Below, piece after piece: positions 1,084 through 54,362 of a stretch of DNA of 64,000 nucleotides. The notes beneath the pieces are model-generated. The model saw only the letters and a program-made list of their open reading frames with translations. It had not been told where the DNA came from and did not search any database. Numbering within the stretch: position 1 is the stretch's first letter; each line of letters opens with the position of its first letter. The position numbers and the translations under genes were made by a program. This DNA comes from Balanoglossus misakiensis (taxonomy: Eukaryota > Animalia > Hemichordata): assembly GCA_040954595.2 (NCBI GenBank), contig CM082594.2, positions 11,102,276 through 11,166,275 on the forward strand, in the 5' to 3' direction.

Positions 1084-4000
1084 CCACCACCATCATCATC
1101 AGCAGTACCACCACCACATCATACAAAATTGGCATTTTCTTCCCAGATATATGTGAATGGTGTAGAGAGACGCATAACAACAGAATTTGAGATCGACGGC
1201 ATTCAAATCATGAGGCCATGTAATAGCTGGGTTGTCTATCTGCATATACCGAAAATCAAAGTGGACGTTGCTTTCTACGATCAGTACGGTGGTTGGAGTG
1301 TGACCATCCCAGAGAGTATATACTTCAACAAGACAGAAGGGCTTTGTGGTAAGTTGATCCTTTGGCAAGATATTATGTCTGGTTGTTTCAGTATATTGCC
1401 CTTTACCTTCAATAACAAACAATATTTCTAATGAATGATGTGAACAGAGAAAGACAGTTTAGTACATCCCGAAAACCAAATCCTGTCGAAGTTTCTTTGA
1501 CAAATATGCAACTTAGATCGTTCCGGACAAAGACGACATGTTACATTCATTTATAAACCTCAGGGTCTTGCAACCAAGACACATCTGATGACCGCCGGAA
1601 ACCAGATGGCACCATAACCGACGACGAAGTGGAGTTTGCTGAGAGTTGGGAGCGAGTTGAGAATGGATCCTGCTTGATTACAAGCGTGCCCAGTCGTCGT
1701 GATGTGACGCCCTCACCGGGCGCTGAAGAGGAATGTCGCAAGTCTCTGTACGAGGGCATCTTTGAAGAGTGCAACATCCTGGTGGATCCGCACACTTTCT
1801 ACCGTGCCTGCCTGTTAGACAGGACGTGCAAGACCGATCACTGTGATGTGTTGGCGTCGTACGCCAACGAGTGTTCCAAGGTGGATTTATGTCTGGACTG
1901 GAGAGAGGAACATAACTGTAGTAAGTCTCCAATTCATTATCTCACAGAAAGTGCAACAGTTATTGTGAAGAATCGGCAAGAAATTGAACAGTTCCCGCCA
2001 CTTTTTAATAACAGCTTCGACTGGGTATTGTTTTGCAGCCGTGCCATGCCCAGAAGGTAAAGTATACGAAGCCTGTCACAGACCCTGCCGTCCGACGTGT
2101 GCCACTTTGAACAAACCAGAAGATGGTGACTGTCTGGGGCCTGATTTGGAAGGCTGCTTCTGTCCAGTCGGGACAATAGAAGACGAGTTTGGCAACTGTG
2201 TGGAATCTTGTGGTGCGTATGATTGTCTCCTCTGCACAAGACACTTGCAATTTTAGTATGAAACTACTGTTTGTTGTTCAAAACACCTGACGCCATTATC
2301 TTCGATGGAAGCTAAGGATCCACACAATCTGTAACTGAACAAAGATGCAGTAATTTAGGATGTTCTCCCTGAAATTCTTTTCCGAGTTATGTCATACCCA
2401 TTCCTCGATAATATTCTACGTGTCTTATTATTTTTCAGATCGATGTATAGAAACGGACGGAACGCCTCGACAGGTAAACATTTTAACATTTAAAAAAAAC
2501 TAATAGTTGTACTTCACTTTTACTGGCTGTACTCGATTCCGAAGATGCAGGCTTTTTGTTTCATGATTAAAACCCAGGTAAATGACAACTTTGAAGAAAT
2601 CATCAGATACTGACAAAAAATGGGTGGGATTTCCTCTTGGTCTAACGGTTTATGTTCTATTCCCACATCGAATTTAGGTGAATGAAACGTGGAAGACGGA
2701 CCCATGTACCCGTTGCACCTGTCTGATTGGTGGGTTTATCCAGTGCACGGAGTTCACCTGTCCGGCTCCACCGTCTTGCCAAGATTTTAAGAGACTGGAA
2801 TCAGATCTTCAAGATGGTGTCTGTTGTCCAGATCACAAATGTGGTAGGTGGAATCACAGTCCTGTGTTGTGTCTTCATCCATATCCTGCCATTTCCGCAG
2901 AACGAAGGAAAAGAACAAGGACATTCCCGTGATTTGATCATTTTCCCAAAAATCTGTCCCCGACAGTGTTTTTTCTAAGCTTTTTATTTCGTATTTCAGT
3001 GTGTGACAGTGATCTGTGTCCCGAAGAAGCTCGTCAGCCTCCTCTGGTATGCAATGATGACAAAGAAGTCATCAACATCACCATCAATGAATGCTGCAGA
3101 CGACAGGAGTGTGGTGAGTGTTTGCCATCAGTCTGCCATATTTACTGCTCTGTGATTATAGCATAATCTGGAACGTTGATGATTGCATACCCGTCGACTT
3201 TATGATAGTCTCAGTCAAGAGTACTATATATTGTCCCAGTATTTTTTTAGGATTTTTAATTTTAAAACCAGGTTATGTAATATTATATCATTTGATGTTG
3301 TTTACTTTCAGTATGTTTACCGTGCACATCTCCAGTTATTCCTACGTGCTCTCCCTACGAAACAGTTGAGATGTATAAAGAGAACCCTGACGATTGTTGC
3401 CAATCGTATCAATGCGGTAAGCTTGTGGTTCTATTGTCTAATCTCTCTCTTCTATTTTCCCTTCCCTCTCTCGTCTTTAAGTTTCACGAGGCCAGAATCA
3501 TTTCTCCGGCCAACAGTAAATATCAGTAGTGTGACAAAATTCATAACACGAACATTTCCGCAACTGTGCAATCATTCTCTAATTTCCACAAGCGATTGTG
3601 TTTACTGCCTGCCTGTTGATTGTCTGCCCAGTAATTGCGTTCTGCTCTGGTAACCTTGACAGTGTGTAACCGTGCCAACTGCCCTGTCGACACGCTGACA
3701 TGTTCTGGCTACATGGTGAAAGAGCAGACTCCCGAATCTTTGGAAGCATGCTGTCCCGAATATGACTGTGGTAAGTGTACTTAGTTACCCTGGTATTTTA
3801 GGGAGATCTTTTTCACATGTCTCATGATCACACCGAGCCTAGTTCATGAAGTTTATCCCGACCATATGTCTTGAACTAATGGTCATTTTATGGTCAGATT
3901 TGTGTAAGTTCACAATAGAGGAAGCATTTGTATTTTTTTATGATGTGGATGATACTGCTTGTCATTGGCGTCAAAGTGATTTATACTTGTTTTGTTTTTG

Positions 4001-36719: not shown

Positions 36720-37305
36720 TTTAGAAGAGAGAAAAATGCAATATCCTCAGTCAATATAAACAGAGAAAGGTCGCACCCACCAAAAGCCAGGAAGTAAACC
36801 GGAAGTGACGAGCAACTCCTGTCTTGGTTAATACTTAATCCGCTGTACAAAATATAGTGCGCCTTAACTGTGCATGTTTTGCTCAAAAAGTTACAATTAT
36901 TTTTATTTAAAACTATATTGACTGGAATAAGACTATACTTTGATATTGTTTACGCAAAAAAGACGTCAGATTAGTGAAAGAAATTGACTGGCGGATGCGT
37001 TTGTAAATGTGTGATAGTTCCAGACACCCATAATTCATTACAAACGAAATGGTGAGTACAACTGAAACATACACATGAGACGTTGCGTTGTTGAAATTCC
37101 TTGCATTTCAGTGTCGCTTTCCTGAATGTGTCATCCGTACATTACGTGGAACTTTTAGAGTTAAGCTTGTGTATGTTCACTTACTGAAATGTATCTTGCA
37201 AACATAATTATTCGTGTTGATAATGACCAGCAGAAGTTTGTTTGACTGTGCGTCGCGTTTCATGAATGAAGCCCTACGCGTGGTGTAATGTACATGAACC
37301 ATGTG

Positions 37306-37493
37306 GGGAGAGGGGGGGGGGGGGGTCCTGGTTTGTCGGCATACACACCTGAAAGTGTGTTCGTGGTTTACAAAATGTAATTACCGTCTCAGTGTAGGAA
37401 TATAAGCAATGTCTTTGGAAGGGCCGCTGAAAGCAGTGTCATTTTGGCCACAGGCTTCCATGCACAGCCATGGGGGGGGGGGGGGGGGGGGGA
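37306..37493. repeat. Two poly-G tracts (~37312-37325 and ~37472-37493) bracketing a 146-nt island
   Basis: Homopolymer G runs directly visible; G-quadruplex potential on the + strand. Confidence 0.85.
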
Positions 37494-38331
37494 CGCTACG
37501 ACCTGACACTCACCTTGGTCAATGTATTATGATAGTCAACAACTCTAAAATACTTGTCATCTGCTCAGAGGAATTTCATTCTGATTTTTTTAACTATTTG
37601 CAGTGATACATGATAAACTTTGGCTTCTGCGCTGACCATTGGAATTGGATGTACCAGGGGACAGAAGATGGAGCGGTAAGCATATGATTACCATAAAAAT
37701 GGTAGTAAATTGGTCGGGTCTGCAAAGTGACAAACCATCTCTGATCTAAACAAACATGCACCAATTAGTTTTCAAAACAAATGAGATACTTGTTCACTGG
37801 TTGGTTTTTGGTTCCACATGTATGTTATACTATAGTAAACTGGACTAACCTTCTTTATACACAGTGGCATATTGGTCTTCTGTTCAGCAATTTAGTTCCA
37901 AATATAGATGTAGTTGGATCTGTGGTAGAATACTTCCAAAATAAGCAAACAATCTAGTCTTGTCCCCTGGTTTAGGCAGCTTGGTAATCCATTCCTTGTA
38001 CAAAGTTCTTTTGGTGTGTGTTCTGCTACGGTCAGCACCTGCTTTGCCCTTGTCTATCTTCAGATGCCATCTGAACTCACTGGGGGGATATAGATGTGTT
38101 TACTTTATGGCACAGTCAATAAATTAAACAGTCTTCATGAGCTGTCAATGTTTTGGTCTCCATGCTGGTATGTTTTACTGATGACACGAGCTGATGTGGA
38201 TATGTATTGGCTGTTGGTGTCTATATTTGGATTAAAGAGGTTCAGCTTCACCACAGACATTCTACTTAGATCGCATATAGTTTTTGAATAAAGAGGTTAG
38301 TTGAAATGCTTATCAGAAACAACAAGGCCAT

Positions 38332-38468
38332 TGCCATCCCTGGGCAAATGTTTGTAGATGCAATCAATATTTGGTGACCTATCTCAGGGCATTCTCATGT
38401 GAAATGCACTGTCTTGCTGTAAATCATTTGTGAGAGATGAAGTGTTTGAAGCAGCACAGTGAACACAT
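38332..38468 (+). ncRNA. Candidate box H/ACA (sca)RNA in a host-gene intron
   Basis: 5' hairpin (ccctg/caggg, caaatgtt/aatatttg); 3' hairpin cactgt 38407-38412 / acagtg 38456-38461 with apical UGAG (CAB-like, 38431-38434), followed by ACA 38463-38465. No canonical ANANNA H box was found. Confidence 0.35.
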
Positions 38469-38850
38469 GCCTCTAAAAGCAGTCCACGATTGCTATCCAT
38501 CATCTACCATGATTGTCCCTGATGTCTGTCTTGATGACACTGAATTTTCATCTGTCATTTCCCACAGCAGAGCTAAACTTCCGGGAGTAGACCATATTTT
38601 CACCACTCGAAGTGTTGACAAGCATTGAACGATGTGAACCACTGCCACCAGTGACTGTGTACAGGTTCCTGGAAACAACTGTGGCAGTCCTAGTCATCTT
38701 GCCTAATACCATGCCATGAAAAACAGGATTTTGACAAGGCAAACAGCAGCAAGTAATCAGCTGTTGAATACATCACAACCAGGTCAGTTTTTGTCTGATC
38801 CATTCCTTGCAATCCTTTCACTCATTCTCAGCATTCTTTCAGTGTGATTA

Positions 38851-39105
38851 CAAGCCTAATGATTACAACTCTTTGCTGAAGGCACAAATTGGCACAATCA
38901 CAACCAGTGGGTTTTTTATTTCAAATTTATTGATATTTTTTTTCTTCTAATTTATGAATCATTTTATTTTGATTTATTTCCTTTCTACATTTTCCTTTTT
39001 TTTATTTAAAAGAATATTTAATTTTACTTTTTCCCCTCAAAATCTACTGGTTCTTGGTTGTTGCCAAGCCAATGACAGTACATGATTATGAGAGCTGAAG
39101 GCTTG
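38851..39105 (+). ncRNA. Box C/D guide RNA, SNORD97/SCARNA97(SNORD133)-like, copy 1 (predicted tRNA-Met(e) Cm34 guide)
   Basis: Terminal stem CAAGCCT/AGGCTTG; box C ATGATTA 38859-38865; D' CTGA 38876-38879; internal stem ttggcacaatcacaaccagtgg / ctactggttcttggttgttgccaa enclosing a ~130-nt U-rich loop; C' ATGACAG 39072-39078; guide GATTATGAGA 39084-39093; D CTGA 39095-39098, 86 nt from the 3' splice site. Confidence 0.85.
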
Positions 39106-39314
39106 CAACTTTCAATGTATAATTTTCGTTTTTTTGTGTGAATATTAAAACGTAATTAATGTTGACCAATGTATTTATCCTCAGATGTATGGCTGTATTT
39201 GCTATTCATAGAAGTCAACTGGAATGTTACTGGACTTCATAGTCCTTGCAGCTGTCCAGGTTAGTAATTTTTATCCACAATTCTGAGTAGTTTCCCGAAA
39301 TCTTATTATGAAAA

Positions 39315-39594
39315 TCCAGGCCTAATGATTAAAACTTGCAACTGAAGGCATTATTGGCAAAAACCACAACTGATATTTATTTATTTTCTTCTTTTGAACT
39401 CTTTGATTTTTACTTCTCTTCAGTTTTTTGTTCATCTCTACATTATTTCTGTTTCAAAATTTTATTTCGTATCTTATTTATGTTTCTCTTTTTTGCAACA
39501 TTACTTTTTCTCTTTGTTTTGTTTTATTCAGTCAAGTTGTTGGTTGATGCCAAGCCAGTGACAGTATACGATTATGAGATCTGAAGGCTTTGGA
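39315..39594 (+). ncRNA. Box C/D guide RNA, SNORD97/SCARNA97-like, copy 2 (predicted tRNA-Met(e) Cm34 guide)
   Basis: Terminal stem TCCAGGCCT/AGGCTTTGGA; C ATGATTA 39325-39331; D' CTGA 39342-39345; internal stem (ttggca/tgccaa, aacca/tggtt, caact/agttg) with U-rich loop; C' GTGACAG 39558-39564; guide GATTATGAGAT 39570-39580; D CTGA 39581-39584, 87 nt from the 3' splice site. Confidence 0.85.
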
Positions 39595-39827
39595 AATCCA
39601 TTTTGCTTTTGTCTCATGTCACAGTTTTGTTCATCACTTTTGCACAGTTTAATCAAAATTTTCTTTTTCAGGGTGAATGGGGTTTTGCTTGGAGCAGCAG
39701 TAGGTGTGGACAGCTTGTACAAATGTAAGTGAAACCCATTTCTTTCCATGATTGACAGAAACCCCCAAGTTAGCAATCCATCATTATACTGGGGTGGCCA
39801 TTTTGTTGCTATGGCAGCAGATGATGA

Positions 39828-40144
39828 TGCCCAATGATGAAACTAAGACGCGTTATGGCAAGGATTGTCTGGACAGATCCCCTCATAGCTTTTATGTCTT
39901 CTTTGCTATATATAATTTGGTCTTTCCCCTTATTAAATTTTGGTTGATTTCCTCATTTTTTTTAACTTTGTTTCGTTTGCTCGCCTTTATGACTGGTCTT
40001 TAATTTCCTTACATTTTTTTTGACATTATTTCTTTGTATATCTTTGTAAAATTTTAGTTTTTTTTGTTTTGACGTTATGATTACTTTGTTAGCTTTGAGA
40101 GTCTGTTCCAGCAGCCAATGACCAAAACAATTAATCTGAGGGCA
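39828..40144 (+). ncRNA. Box C/D RNA, SNORD97-like, copy 3 (retains only the upstream antisense element)
   Basis: Terminal stem TGCCC/GGGCA, extended by an external stem (gcagcagatga/tcatctctgctgt); perfect box C ATGATGA 39834-39840; AGACGCGTTAT 39846-39856; degenerate D'; internal stem ctggacaga...tcatagct / agctttgagagtctgttccag around a U-rich loop; C' ATGACCA 40118-40124; D CTGA 40136-40139. Confidence 0.8.
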
Positions 40145-40848
40145 ATTTTCATCTCTGCTGTTGTTTGTCAGTACTTTGATCGCTGTTAGAAAGGAAAAAT
40201 TTGAAATGAATTTGTCACAAGAATTTATGCCATGGGAAACTGAAATGGGTTGTATTCATTTTTTATTCCCAACAGGTCAAGAACATTAGAGTTGCAGAAA
40301 CATCGTCAGAGAAGAGTCGGTTATTGAAATAGCACCACCAGTGACAAGTTCTACCCGTTTCAAACTCACATTGGGGACAGTTTTGGGAACCTTCAGTATT
40401 TGTAATGTTTACACAAAAGTACCAAATAAATTCATGATGTAGAGAAACAACAATTTGCATACTACTATAATATTCAGTATTGATGTTTGAAATGATTTTA
40501 TTTGACATTTCATGTTGATAATATGAATTTACAAAGTGTTGACAAATATCATAGATGATGCTCTGGAGTATGCCTATTTTATTTTGTCATTTTATTGCAA
40601 GTTTTGGTTGGCTGAATATTCACAAGCCTTAGAATTGAAATGAGCAAGAACTAAAAATATTATGAACATAATAAGTACACAGCTGAGAAAACTTTGGTCA
40701 GTGTACATGCAATTTATTGGCTCTCTCCACTCATTTGCATACATATTGTGCAGTGTGAATTGATGGCAGTAGATACATGTAAAATTACAAGAATTATCAC
40801 ATCTCATGTACAAAGGTTACATTTCAAGTAATTTGATGTTGACACTTT

Positions 40849-43456
40849 TTAAAGTGTAGCTAATCTTTCTACAATTTTCCTGTAGTCATCCATTAGTTCT
40901 TGGAACATTTTTTCTAAATTTTGGTGCCTTTCTTGTTGACTCTGTCCTGCCATAGTTGCTGCCAGCTCTTCGGGTTTCAGAACTTTTCTCATCTTCTCTA
41001 GGTCACTTTTTTCTTTCTGCAGTCGGAAATTCAATGAAATTTGTCAGTGTTATTGCATTTACTCAAGTGAAAGTAACCGGGTTTCATTTGTGTAGAATTT
41101 GTATTCGGTAAAACAAAAGAAGCAATGTGACATTATCTGTGAGGGCGTTCCACATGAAATATTCAAATGTACATATTTCCTCTTTTTTTTTCCAAAGATT
41201 GCCAAGAACACAATTCTTACCTGGTAAGGCATGTTCAATCTTTTCTTGACATCGAGTCTAAACTCTTTAAACTGTTGGACGTTACTTTCATCAGTGACAC
41301 GCAAACGTAGAATTTCATAAATTCTTCTTGTCTGTTTCTGAGAGAAGTGTACAAAATCATGTGAGATATGGTGTATTGGTGGAGGATATTCTTTGTATTA
41401 AGCTTGTATTTTAGTGACAGTGTTTCTAATTAATTGTGTCAAAACTGTTCTATCAGTGATACAACTAGCATCATACTCGTCATTTTACTCACTTTGTTAA
41501 TTTTGAGTTTTTCTTGTGCTTCCTGTACCATGTTTTCCGAGAAGCCTTGATGGAGACATTCAGGTGCAAATGATGACAGATGCATACATGCTTTGCAGTC
41601 AACGAAGTCTCTGAGGCGTATAAAGTCATCCGATGGATCTTCCACTGAAAACAAGGAAAAAACATTTAGAAAATTGCAATATGATTTGGAAATCAGTGTG
41701 TTCTTTGAATGATGTATAGGACAACAAACATATCTTTTATATCATAGAAACTTACCTGTTATGTCCAAGACCTCAAGATCTTGTCTGTAATCTATATAAA
41801 TAGTTTCTAATAACTGAGCACCATGTCCTTGTCTTTGATATGGAGGAAGTACCAACATCTGACTGCAGAGGTAAATATTCATAAATTAGTTGATGTGTCT
41901 TAGCATGTGAGCAAGAAAGGAGTTGTGTATACAGAATTTCAACGGGTCTGCTTAATTTCTTTTACAAATGACACTTGAATATGACTGTAATACGAGTCTA
42001 CATACCTCACCCGTGGTCTGATTTTGTTAGGGTATGCATAATACCTATACACTGTACCATATCCAACAATACTGTATCTAGGTGAACCGTCAAGTGTAAA
42101 CTTCTCAAACCTGTCAATGAAAAAAAAGTTTAACCATTGACCTACATTCCACCTCGTTCTAAAGCAATAACCTTTCACATTTCCCACACCAGTTATCCGC
42201 GACCTCATTACGCGTTACACAACTGTCCAGCTGGGAAGGTTCACCCCACATAACCAGAAGCAGTTGCTTTACCCCAGTAGGCCAAAGCTACATGCAAGAT
42301 AAATGCACAGTAGTCAATTAACTTACAAAAGATAGAATTGCCAACGATCATCGTCCACATCAATGTATGACACAGCATCAATAAACCACCAGAGGAATGT
42401 CTGTAACCTTTCGTGATATTCTCTAAAGCCAGCCACACTGATGTCAACCTTGTAAATTTCAAACTGTCGTTCCACTCCCTCGGTGTTCGTCTTGAAAGAA
42501 TGCAGCAATGTTCCGCTTGGTGTGAAACTTCCATCATTGGACAAGCTGCTCACAAAACTTTCCAGATTGTCCATTGGATGAATACCTAGTTTTTCAATTA
42601 TCATTCTTGTCACATCATCCGCCTGAAAGAGAAAAGACAACCACCAAATTCAAGAATAGTCTTTCATTTCCTCATCTTGTTTATTTCAGCAACATTGCAC
42701 CGCAGAAAAGCAACACCTACCTGCACACCATCATATCTTGCAGGATCGACTTTTTCTGCGCATGATTTTCCAAGATAATAATTTAACTGTGCTGCTGAAT
42801 AGTATAGTTGAATCTTCAGATTCTTGTACCCAAAAATATTCTCACTGAAGGCAAAAAAAAAAGGATTTGACATGTAAGCAGGAAAAAACATCTGAAAAGA
42901 CTGAAACAATTGGGTATCTGGGTACTTATAGAGGTTCTCTTACTTTTGGCCAAAAATTTGATGTGTAAATTCAGGATGGAAAGCTTTGCTGTCGTCATCT
43001 ATATCACTTTGCGTCCTTACTGTAAGATATAAGTGCAGACAAATTAATATCCTGTAAGAGTAGATTCCTCCCAAGCTAGAATTATCTTGATACACACATG
43101 ATAAACATCTCAAACTTTGACTGCCCTACCTAGTTTCATAGTGATCACTTCATTGGCTGAGCAGACGTACTGCTCCATTTCAGTGCGCAACAAGGACATT
43201 TCTGAAATGTACAAAAATGAAATGTTATTTCAGTCAGTAAATTGTACAGTGTAGATGCATTGTTGTTGTCAACTTCAAATTTCATATTGTGTTTAAAAGA
43301 AATCTTTTAACAATTTTGACCTGGAAAGTATTTTTCTTGTATGCTGTGTACTTTATTTACACGGGTGCCTTTCTTAAATAAAAGAAACGTACGACAAACT
43401 TGTAATTTGTGTAATTTTCGACGATTTCAGTAGATTTCCCCTTACTCACCCGCCAT
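40849..43456 (-). CDS. HAT1: Histone acetyltransferase type B catalytic subunit
   Basis: First exon ATGGCGG|GTGAGT (43456-43450); later exons encode FHPEFTHQIFG, ENIFGYKNLKIQLYYSA, YHERLQTFLWWFIDAVSYIDVDDDRW, YRYYAYPNKIRPR, SQMLVLPPYQRQGHG (acetyl-CoA motif A), TVEDPS, RLDVKKRL, ending DYRKIVERLATL*. Confidence 0.96.
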
Positions 43457-44229
43457 GTTGGTTCTTCTTTCGCGGGGTTTCCGCACAACACATGCGCACT
43501 GACGTAAGGTCAACTTCGGTCAAGTAACCGGGACCATCCTCTTTCAAGTTGTCAAACACCCAAGGCCTTCTTTAAAAAGTTTGCCCCCACTAATATGATT
43601 TTCTAGTAAAATACTCCCAAATGAGACTACGGCGGCGGTCACCTTTGAATGGTCACACTTAATGAGTCAGTTATATGCGAGATATTGTCAATTATGTTTG
43701 ATACCCCGTTTGTTTATGAATGGCCTCCAGACGATACCATTGTTTACTATTGAGGGTGAGCTGTCATATGACCAGGAAAGCAAAAGTAAAACGTATAAAT
43801 ACTATGATCTAAATGTCTCAATGCACTGCATGACAAGTATTTAGCAGTTCAGCAGCAAAATTCGTGCAAATGTTGGTGTTAATGAGGCATAAAATTGTGA
43901 CGACGTTAAACAGACATCCCGAAATCACGAGTAAAATTTACAACTCAACCAATCAGCGCCGAGTAATCACATGTACGTTTCCCATATAAGGAAAATAACA
44001 AACAAAAACAAAAGGAATGCAAGGCTGCAGAACCTACTACTTACTCTATTTTGGGACAGTGCAGTGAAGTCCTAATCAAGGTTGGTGAACGAAAGGCAAC
44101 ATTCCTTGCATGTTTTTAACAATCTGTGGAGTTCGTTCTGTGAGCATTTCCTACCATATGGTTGTTCAGATGATATACTGTATATAAATTTTATTTCAGA
44201 GAGCGGCATCTTACAGATCATCAGAAAAT
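43457..44229. promoter_or_regulatory. Bidirectional promoter region between HAT1 and SLC25A12/13
   Basis: Under 800 bp between divergent start codons; E2F-like TTTCGCGG ~43468, TGCGCA and TGACGTAA ~43493-43508, CCAAT box ~43949. Confidence 0.55.

Positions 44230-54362
<10,133 letters not shown>

Follow-up and report, generated by a model that had tools for sequence, protein, structure and literature searches.

Three box C/D-like elements lie one after another in an apparent intergenic gap in the acorn worm Balanoglossus misakiensis, within a stretch of 64,000 nucleotides (64 kb) that was analyzed as a whole and is called the window here. The question they raise is which RNA position they guide, and whether all three guide the same one. 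The original prediction took them for three like guides of tRNA modification. The best explanation, in our view probably but not securely the right one, is that they represent three paralogous SNORD97/SCARNA97-type genes in introns of a non-coding host, among which copies 1 and 2 would be guides for C34 and copy 3 would have been kept for its match to the tRNA D-arm.

The boxes and stems of all three elements were found where they had been predicted, in RNAs of 255, 274, and 317 nt (Table 1), and in each copy a 5′ C box and a 3′ D box are closed by a terminal stem. The C box of copies 1 and 2, AUGAUUA, matches the Rfam SNORD97 consensus and is followed by a 10-nt spacer and a canonical D′ box (CUGA), and both copies also have a C′ box; in copy 3 the homologous D′ place reads GCAA. 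Copies 1 and 2 are 72% identical in their 5′ arms and 89% in their 3′ arms. Relative to shuffled sequences, the folds gave z values of −4.0 (copy 1), −0.5 (copy 2), and +1.2 (copy 3), with only copy 1 folding better than the shuffles.

Table 1. Features of the guide RNA cluster and its predicted host transcript (window positions), with the metagenome loci bearing RNase P RNA for which coordinates are given (locus positions).
Feature	Coordinates	Strand	Basis or detail
Tandem GGAAGT motifs between host and divergent LRR gene	36788..36811	.	2 of the window's 5 such motifs
Predicted non-coding host transcript	36984..40450	+	motif-based only
Predicted host exons	~36984 (5′ end approximate)-37051, 37604-37675, 38571-38782, 39185-39259, 39672-39724, 40276-~40450	+	motifs
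Copy 1, SNORD97/SCARNA97-type box C/D RNA gene, 255 nt	38851..39105	+	motifs, R1 model, fold
Copy 1, 5′ parts	C 38859-65 (ATGATTA), D′ CTGA 38876-79		7-bp terminal stem; 10-nt spacer between C and D′; internal stem
Copy 1, 3′ parts	U-rich loop 38911-39040, C′ 39072-78, D CTGA 39095-98	+
Copy 1, D guide	39084..39093	+	10 bp with tRNA-Met(e) anticodon loop; G39090 opposite C34; duplex −13.2 kcal/mol
Copy 2, box C/D RNA gene laid out like copy 1, 274 nt	39317..39590	+	motifs, R1 model
Copy 2, parts	C 39325-31, D′ CTGA 39342-45, loop 39374-39530, C′ 39558-64, D 39581-84	+
Copy 2, D guide	39570..39580	+	11 bp; G39576 opposite C34; duplex −14.0 kcal/mol
Copy 3, derived paralog, 317 nt	39828..40144	+	motifs, Rfam alignment, alignment to copies 1 and 2
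Copy 3, 5′ parts	C ATGATGA 39834-40, degenerate D′ GCAA 39858-61	+	5-bp terminal stem; 17-nt D′ arm
Copy 3, 3′ parts	loop 39885-40095, C′ 40118-24, D 40136-39	+
Copy 3, D′ guide	39845..39856	+	12 consecutive nt equal to Rfam SNORD97 consensus positions 19-30
Copy 3, broken D guide	40125..40135	+	4-nt gap relative to copies 1 and 2, removing the G opposite C34
RNase P/SNORD97-like locus L045	1334-1644	-
RNase P/SNORD97-like locus L074	1-237	+
RNase P/SNORD97-like locus L085	855-1101	-

Copies 1 and 2 share the guide that had been pointed out before box D. GATTATGAGA occurred only twice in the window, at 39084 and 39570, and the sequence common to both copies, GAUUAUGAGA, ends one base short of box D. 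The pattern GATTATGAGA-N-CTGA with at most one mismatch, itself derived from this observation, gave two matches against 0.03 expected, and 0 of 100 shuffles reached two. As originally predicted, the fifth base before box D (G39090 in copy 1, G39576 in copy 2) stands opposite C34, and both copies therefore possess, at D+5, the guide for tRNA-Met(e) C34 that is invariant in this family. The target block, GTCTCATAATC, was the same in 20 of 20 tRNA-Met rows, used as a proxy for the animal's own tRNA; searches for tRNA genes in the 64-kb window found none. In duplex predictions copies 1 and 2 paired with the anticodon loop and not with the D-arm, and copy 3 did the reverse. We consider it very probable, judging from these pairings, that copies 1 and 2 are Cm34 guides for elongator tRNA-Met. 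Their differing D′ segments, which had also been put forward as guides, are most likely free spacers, since this stretch of 10-11 nt varies freely in close homologs and no target was found.

The Rfam SNORD97 scan that had been suggested as a check returned 0 matches at gathering score over the whole window, and likewise over the 34-45 kb stretch; copy 1 was scanned with Rfam only within these two scans. Narrow scans of copy 2 gave chance matches only and no SNORD97 match. No copy reached the gathering score of RF01291 (45 bits). Two clear metagenome homologs likewise remained below it (31.7 and 28.5 bits), so the miss reflects the model. Such outside homologs were sought to avoid circularity, by a metagenome scan for C′, guide, and D that yielded 118 loci from 37 of the 64 parts of the collection; five matches from a viral collection, background only, brought the total to 123. 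A filter for C box and terminal stem kept 43 of these, and removal of three by eye (L001, L060, L093) and of six exact duplicates left 34 homologs that are distinct, not independent, and measure 147-374 nt (median ~191). They share the boxes, the D guide, a D′ spacer of 10-11 nt, and an internal stem, with a pyrimidine loop in 19 of 34. Their invariant D guide and 20-23 nt C′-to-D spacing were fixed by the search pattern and are not evidence, and terminal-stem covariation in their alignment was left unused because they had been chosen for that stem. RNAalifold recovered no common internal stem from the homolog alignment, and the internal stems therefore rest on single-sequence folds.

A model built from the 22 shortest outside homologs (R1) ranked copies 1, 2, and 3 first to third in the window, at 39.5 bits (E 2.7e-10), 31.3 bits (E 7.3e-8), and 16.8 bits, with the next background match at 9.9; the bias terms for copies 1 and 2 were large (24.7 and 31.8). 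For these two copies the scores agree with the SNORD97/SCARNA97 assignment first proposed. The score of copy 3 is non-discriminating, because SNORD81-type neighbours of the homologs scored 13.9-17.4 bits on R1, bracketing its 16.8. A second copy was found in the flanks of 0 of the 34 homolog loci, of which 21 are at least 2 kb long, one of the R1 flank scans covering L006-L085 only. A SNORD81-like RNA accompanied the SNORD97-like element in L035, L066, and probably L048, a SNORD79-like RNA in L061, and an H/ACA-like RNA in L071, all below gathering score; as far as their sequences tell, these are ordinary mixed snoRNA hosts. In L034, a second C-box element (2975-3125, minus strand) lies ~300 nt upstream of the SNORD97-like RNA, scores 16.5 bits on R1, and has no tRNA-Met D guide.

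What had been described as three like guide RNAs proved alike in C34 register only for copies 1 and 2, while copy 3 is a different paralog. It does not have the invariant C34 D guide of the SNORD97/SCARNA97 family and was placed as a derived member; the corresponding segment differs from that of copies 1 and 2 by the 4-nt gap plus a substitution. Because no duplex is predicted between its D segment and the anticodon loop, copy 3, as read from its sequence, cannot guide Cm34. It has a D′ guide of the human type instead. In two narrow Rfam scans of copy 3, SNORD97 was the top match, aligned without gaps over 30 5′ positions of which 24 match, the last 12 identical and in the same register, with weak scores of 15-18 bits (18.3 of the 45 for gathering; E 0.7-0.9). 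By a post-hoc figure, chance would place the 12-mer in the window 0.0023 times, and its spacing from box C equals that in SNORD97. T39853 would sit opposite G22 of tRNA-Met(e), and the predicted duplex with the D-arm (−13.6 kcal/mol) equals that of human SNORD97. The D-arm block, AGCGCGTC, was present in 16 of 20 tRNA-Met rows, including all 16 chordate rows.

Copy 3 also has its C and D boxes in perfect form, a preserved terminal stem, and the same sequence context around C′ as copies 1 and 2, and its stems cannot be aligned with theirs but still pair. In all, ~40 constrained positions are intact in copy 3, and the D guide has been hit at least twice. An NNGA at D′ closes a stem in 32 of the 34 homologs and in copies 1 and 2; the single NNGA of copy 3 lies 3 nt out of register. 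Given this degenerate D′ box, copy 3 may perhaps be decaying; that it has been retained for its D′ arm is, on its sequence, an evenly balanced proposition. No copy joins both guides as SNORD97 proper does, the D′ guide occurring only in copy 3 and the D guide only in copies 1 and 2. Since copy 3 is predicted to pair only with the D-arm, and copies 1 and 2 only with the anticodon loop, the two guides of human SNORD97 have likely been divided between paralogs at this locus. Among the 34 homologs, the full 8-nt D-arm match occurred in 0 and 7 nt of it in 2, which argues that most lineages do without the second arm. In the 5′ arms of L015, L032, and L039 the D′ spacers could pair through 5-7 nt with the tRNA-Met D-arm (UGCGC core), and those of L046, L061, and L069 through 6 nt with tRNA-Met positions 25-30; an ancient second arm with repeated losses may lie behind this, or these short matches may be due to chance.

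The loops of the three elements (130, 157, and 211 nt in copies 1, 2, and 3) are 57-62% U, and 60-62% in copies 1 and 2, against 31% T in the window, and are the U-richest 100-nt stretches on its plus strand. At 71-77% pyrimidine they form a long pyrimidine-rich internal region of SCARNA97 type, as had been anticipated. A 93-nt pyrimidine-rich loop directs SCARNA97 to Cajal bodies and was described in 2019, in the available text of that paper, as unique to SCARNA97 (Vitali and Kiss 2019, PMC6601510). Long pyrimidine loops are nevertheless common in the family, as the internal region is at least 65% pyrimidine in 19 of the 34 metagenome homologs, among which the window copies stand at the long, U-richest extreme. 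The homologs and the cluster together indicate that the pyrimidine-rich loop is widespread, not unique to SCARNA97.

A separate observation came from the metagenome loci. In 7 of the 118 (L011, L029, L045, L064, L074, L085, and L116), RNase P RNA motifs were located 79-112 nt before the same D guide; five of these loci are near-identical, and the seven comprise three sequence types. A full nuclear RNase P RNA occupies the position that the U-rich loop has elsewhere, with the C box on one side and the C′ box, tRNA-Met D guide, and D box on the other. Three loci scanned with Rfam scored 169.5 (L045), 113.2, and 79.9 bits for RNase P RNA. In L029, L045, and L064 the C box precedes the ribozyme by ~65-70 nt and follows a donor by 41 nt; the four remaining loci are cut off short of that point. 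Box D is 74-78 nt from the acceptor in 7 of 7. The whole RNA measures 445-451 nt from C to D, and the gene whose intron contains it codes for cyclin T, according to a Pfam search. No terminal stem was evident in these loci. Judging from this arrangement, a ribozyme that cuts tRNA apparently sits inside a guide RNA for tRNA modification. Insects and crustaceans are already known to have RNase P RNA in introns, and the accessible portions of those reports mention no enclosing snoRNA (PMC4287351, PMC6797745); a literature search, with most subscription papers outside its reach, found no RNase P-SNORD97 fusion. The nesting is probably more interesting than the guide trio itself.

Pfam searches placed the cluster in a gap flanked by a divergent minus-strand LRR gene (Pfam LRR), which we take to be RSU1-like, and a convergent HAT1 gene, with a HAT1 exon 84% identical to Ptychodera flava, 81% to Glandiceps talaboti, and 63% to Saccoglossus, values that most likely indicate an acorn worm of ptychoderid type. 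Across 40849-53000, HAT1 (minus) adjoins an EF-hand mitochondrial-carrier gene (plus), presumably SLC25A12-like, and the two genes are neighbours in the human genome too. The two GGAAGT motifs between host and LRR gene presumably constitute an ETS-type bidirectional promoter. In the six-exon host model the first ATG is joined straight to TGA by predicted splicing, no ATG ORF is longer than 48 codons (65 when one optional exon is included), and the 3′ end follows an AATAAA at 40425. Pfam searches of 15 of 15 open frames of the gap returned nothing at E≤0.01, and two marginal matches (E 0.04 and 0.09) fell on one minus-strand frame. The predicted exon models thus contain no coding ORF, as is usual for a snoRNA host gene; the host transcript is likely non-coding, and the proposal of a dedicated non-coding host was probably right. 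A protein-coding host was rejected on the same ORF lengths and Pfam results, and a location in the 5′ UTR of the next plus-strand gene was rejected because that gene sits past the convergent HAT1.

Predicted donors and acceptors bracket all three elements on one strand. Donors precede box C by 76, 65, and 109 nt in copies 1, 2, and 3, and acceptors follow box D by 86, 87, and 136 nt, the first two as initially reported. The gap has 7 strong donors, where shuffles gave 3.5 ± 1.7 and reached 7 in 7 of 100 cases, and the splice-site excess in the gap is not significant. The gap also contains a possible additional host exon at 38064-38167 or 38064-38295 (plus strand; acceptor 38063, donors 38168 and 38296), with AATAAA nearby at 38118 and 38287. 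Predicted intron 1 includes two poly-G tracts (37299-37326 and 37458-37492), ~160 nt apart, with a common CCATG lead-in. At 37684-37744 (plus strand), 8 nt past the predicted intron 2 donor, there is a 61-nt C/D-like element (ATGATTA ... GTGACA ... CTGA) that has no adjacent terminal stem, no Rfam snoRNA match, and a fold z of −1.7, and is possibly due to chance.

By extension from human work, the host would be transcribed by Pol II from a promoter common with the divergent LRR gene and then spliced, and the debranched introns would be trimmed to C/D termini protected by 15.5K, NOP56, NOP58, and fibrillarin. Like that of SCARNA97, the U-rich loop would route the RNP to Cajal bodies. There, probably, copies 1 and 2 would pair over 10-11 nt with the tRNA at positions 30/31-40 and C34 would be methylated by fibrillarin. 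Copy 3 would pair over 8 nt with tRNA positions 21-28 and either direct Gm22 or merely open the tRNA, and the latter may be all it does because its D′ box lacks GA. The protection from angiogenin cleavage invoked in the original prediction does not transfer as such, because angiogenin is a vertebrate enzyme; the counterpart here is likely to be tRNA stability or shielding against some other nuclease.

One further reading, which we hold to be possible yet doubtful, is a split two-handed guide in which the two arms would be carried by separate RNAs of one transcript and copy 3 would act in trans, methylating G22 or opening the D-arm and anticodon stem for copies 1 and 2, with a pre-vertebrate U-rich Cajal-body signal in all three. 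Were this so, the loop would serve the scaffold as a cargo site, one that in other animals is occupied by an entire RNase P RNA (L045, L064, and L029); unless such trans-cooperation is real, the known mechanism is unchanged. Plain redundancy, with copies 1 and 2 as Cm34 guides and copy 3 as an old dual-guide gene decaying after loss of its D guide, the D′ 12-mer a leftover, seems unlikely. The D′ box without GA, the 136 nt instead of 86-87 nt between box D and the predicted acceptor, and the fold z of +1.2 all accord with decay, but the C box, D box, terminal stem, C′ box, and 12 guide bases are intact beside a D guide with at least two changes, and the stems have diverged from those of copies 1 and 2 yet still pair.

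A multi-target cluster, in which copy 3 through its D segment and copies 1 and 2 through their D′ segments would guide methylation of other RNAs (snRNA, rRNA, or other tRNAs), strikes us as improbable. Five 9-nt probes, representing these segments and the short intron-2 candidate, had 0 matches in three files of human snoRNA-target tables, and the D′ spacer differs even between close homologs, as it does between copies 1 and 2, otherwise 72-89% identical; these results outweigh the canonical CUGA D′ boxes of copies 1 and 2, the perfect D box of copy 3, and the many tRNA partners of human D97/D133 (PMC10576143, available text). Very little credence attaches to an unexpressed cluster of relocated pseudogenes in the intergenic gap with splice-like motifs arisen by chance. 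The splice motifs alone are indeed not above chance, but the boxes and stems are intact throughout, every element has a donor 65-109 nt upstream of box C and an acceptor 86-136 nt downstream of box D, with all these sites on one strand, and the cluster is preceded by promoter-like motifs and followed by AATAAA.

Under the preferred reading of three paralogs with copy 3 kept for its D-arm match, the locus would date the human D′ guide to before the acorn worm/chordate split, which argues for long-term selection on a second arm whose support is weak, with a G-U pair at the target base. It would also offer a natural separation-of-function set for the D′ arm as an independent methylation guide versus a helper for C34.

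The family and its C34 chemistry are already known; the guide partition appears to be new, a literature search with most subscription papers outside its reach having found no printed case in the SNORD97/SCARNA97 family. According to the available text of Vitali and Kiss (2019, PMC6601510), SNORD97 and SCARNA97 guide Cm34 in human, and invertebrate genomes have one candidate each, with single candidates in insects, Ciona, and plants; the accessible part of a review repeats the single-homolog view for invertebrates (PMC7038934). The three copies here contradict this one-gene-per-genome view. In fish, LARP4 has already been reported as hosting two paralogs in one gene (PMC6601510, supplement legend). 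Going by the reverse complement of a published FISH probe, the guide and box D of copy 2 are the same 15 nt as in human SCARNA97 (PMC6601510, in part). PARIS2 data, in the portions available, pair the human SNORD97 D′ arm with tRNA-Met at Gm22, alternatively Gm10, the G22 pairing having G-U at the target base (Dataset 1), and the D′ guide of SNORD133 is given as diverged (Zhang et al. 2023, PMC10576143).

The non-vertebrate single candidates and the 34 metagenome homologs resemble the copies in their boxes, D′ spacer, internal stem, and D guide, but the former are one per genome in print (PMC6601510, as available) and none of the latter has the full D′ guide, against three copies here. Copies 1 and 2 are like human SCARNA97/SNORD133 (216 nt, LARP4 intron) in their Cm34 D guide, long pyrimidine-rich internal region, and diverged D′ guide (PMC6601510, PMC10576143, both in part), and unlike it in being longer, with loops of 130 and 157 nt rather than 93, in forming a tandem pair, and in their predicted non-coding host. 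Copy 3 is like human SNORD97 (RF01291, 142 nt, EIF4G2 intron) in its terminal stem, 17-nt C-to-D′ arm, and 12-nt G22 D′ guide; however, human SNORD97 has both guides, is short and nucleolar, and has the D′ box AAGA, whereas copy 3 has no C34 guide, a 211-nt U-rich loop, and GCAA. Non-coding snoRNA host genes of the GAS5/UHG type have short exons, no long ORF, and one snoRNA per intron. The predicted host is like them in its short exons, its lack of any ORF over 50 codons, and its one snoRNA per intron, and unlike them in that all its recognised cargo belongs to one tRNA-directed family.
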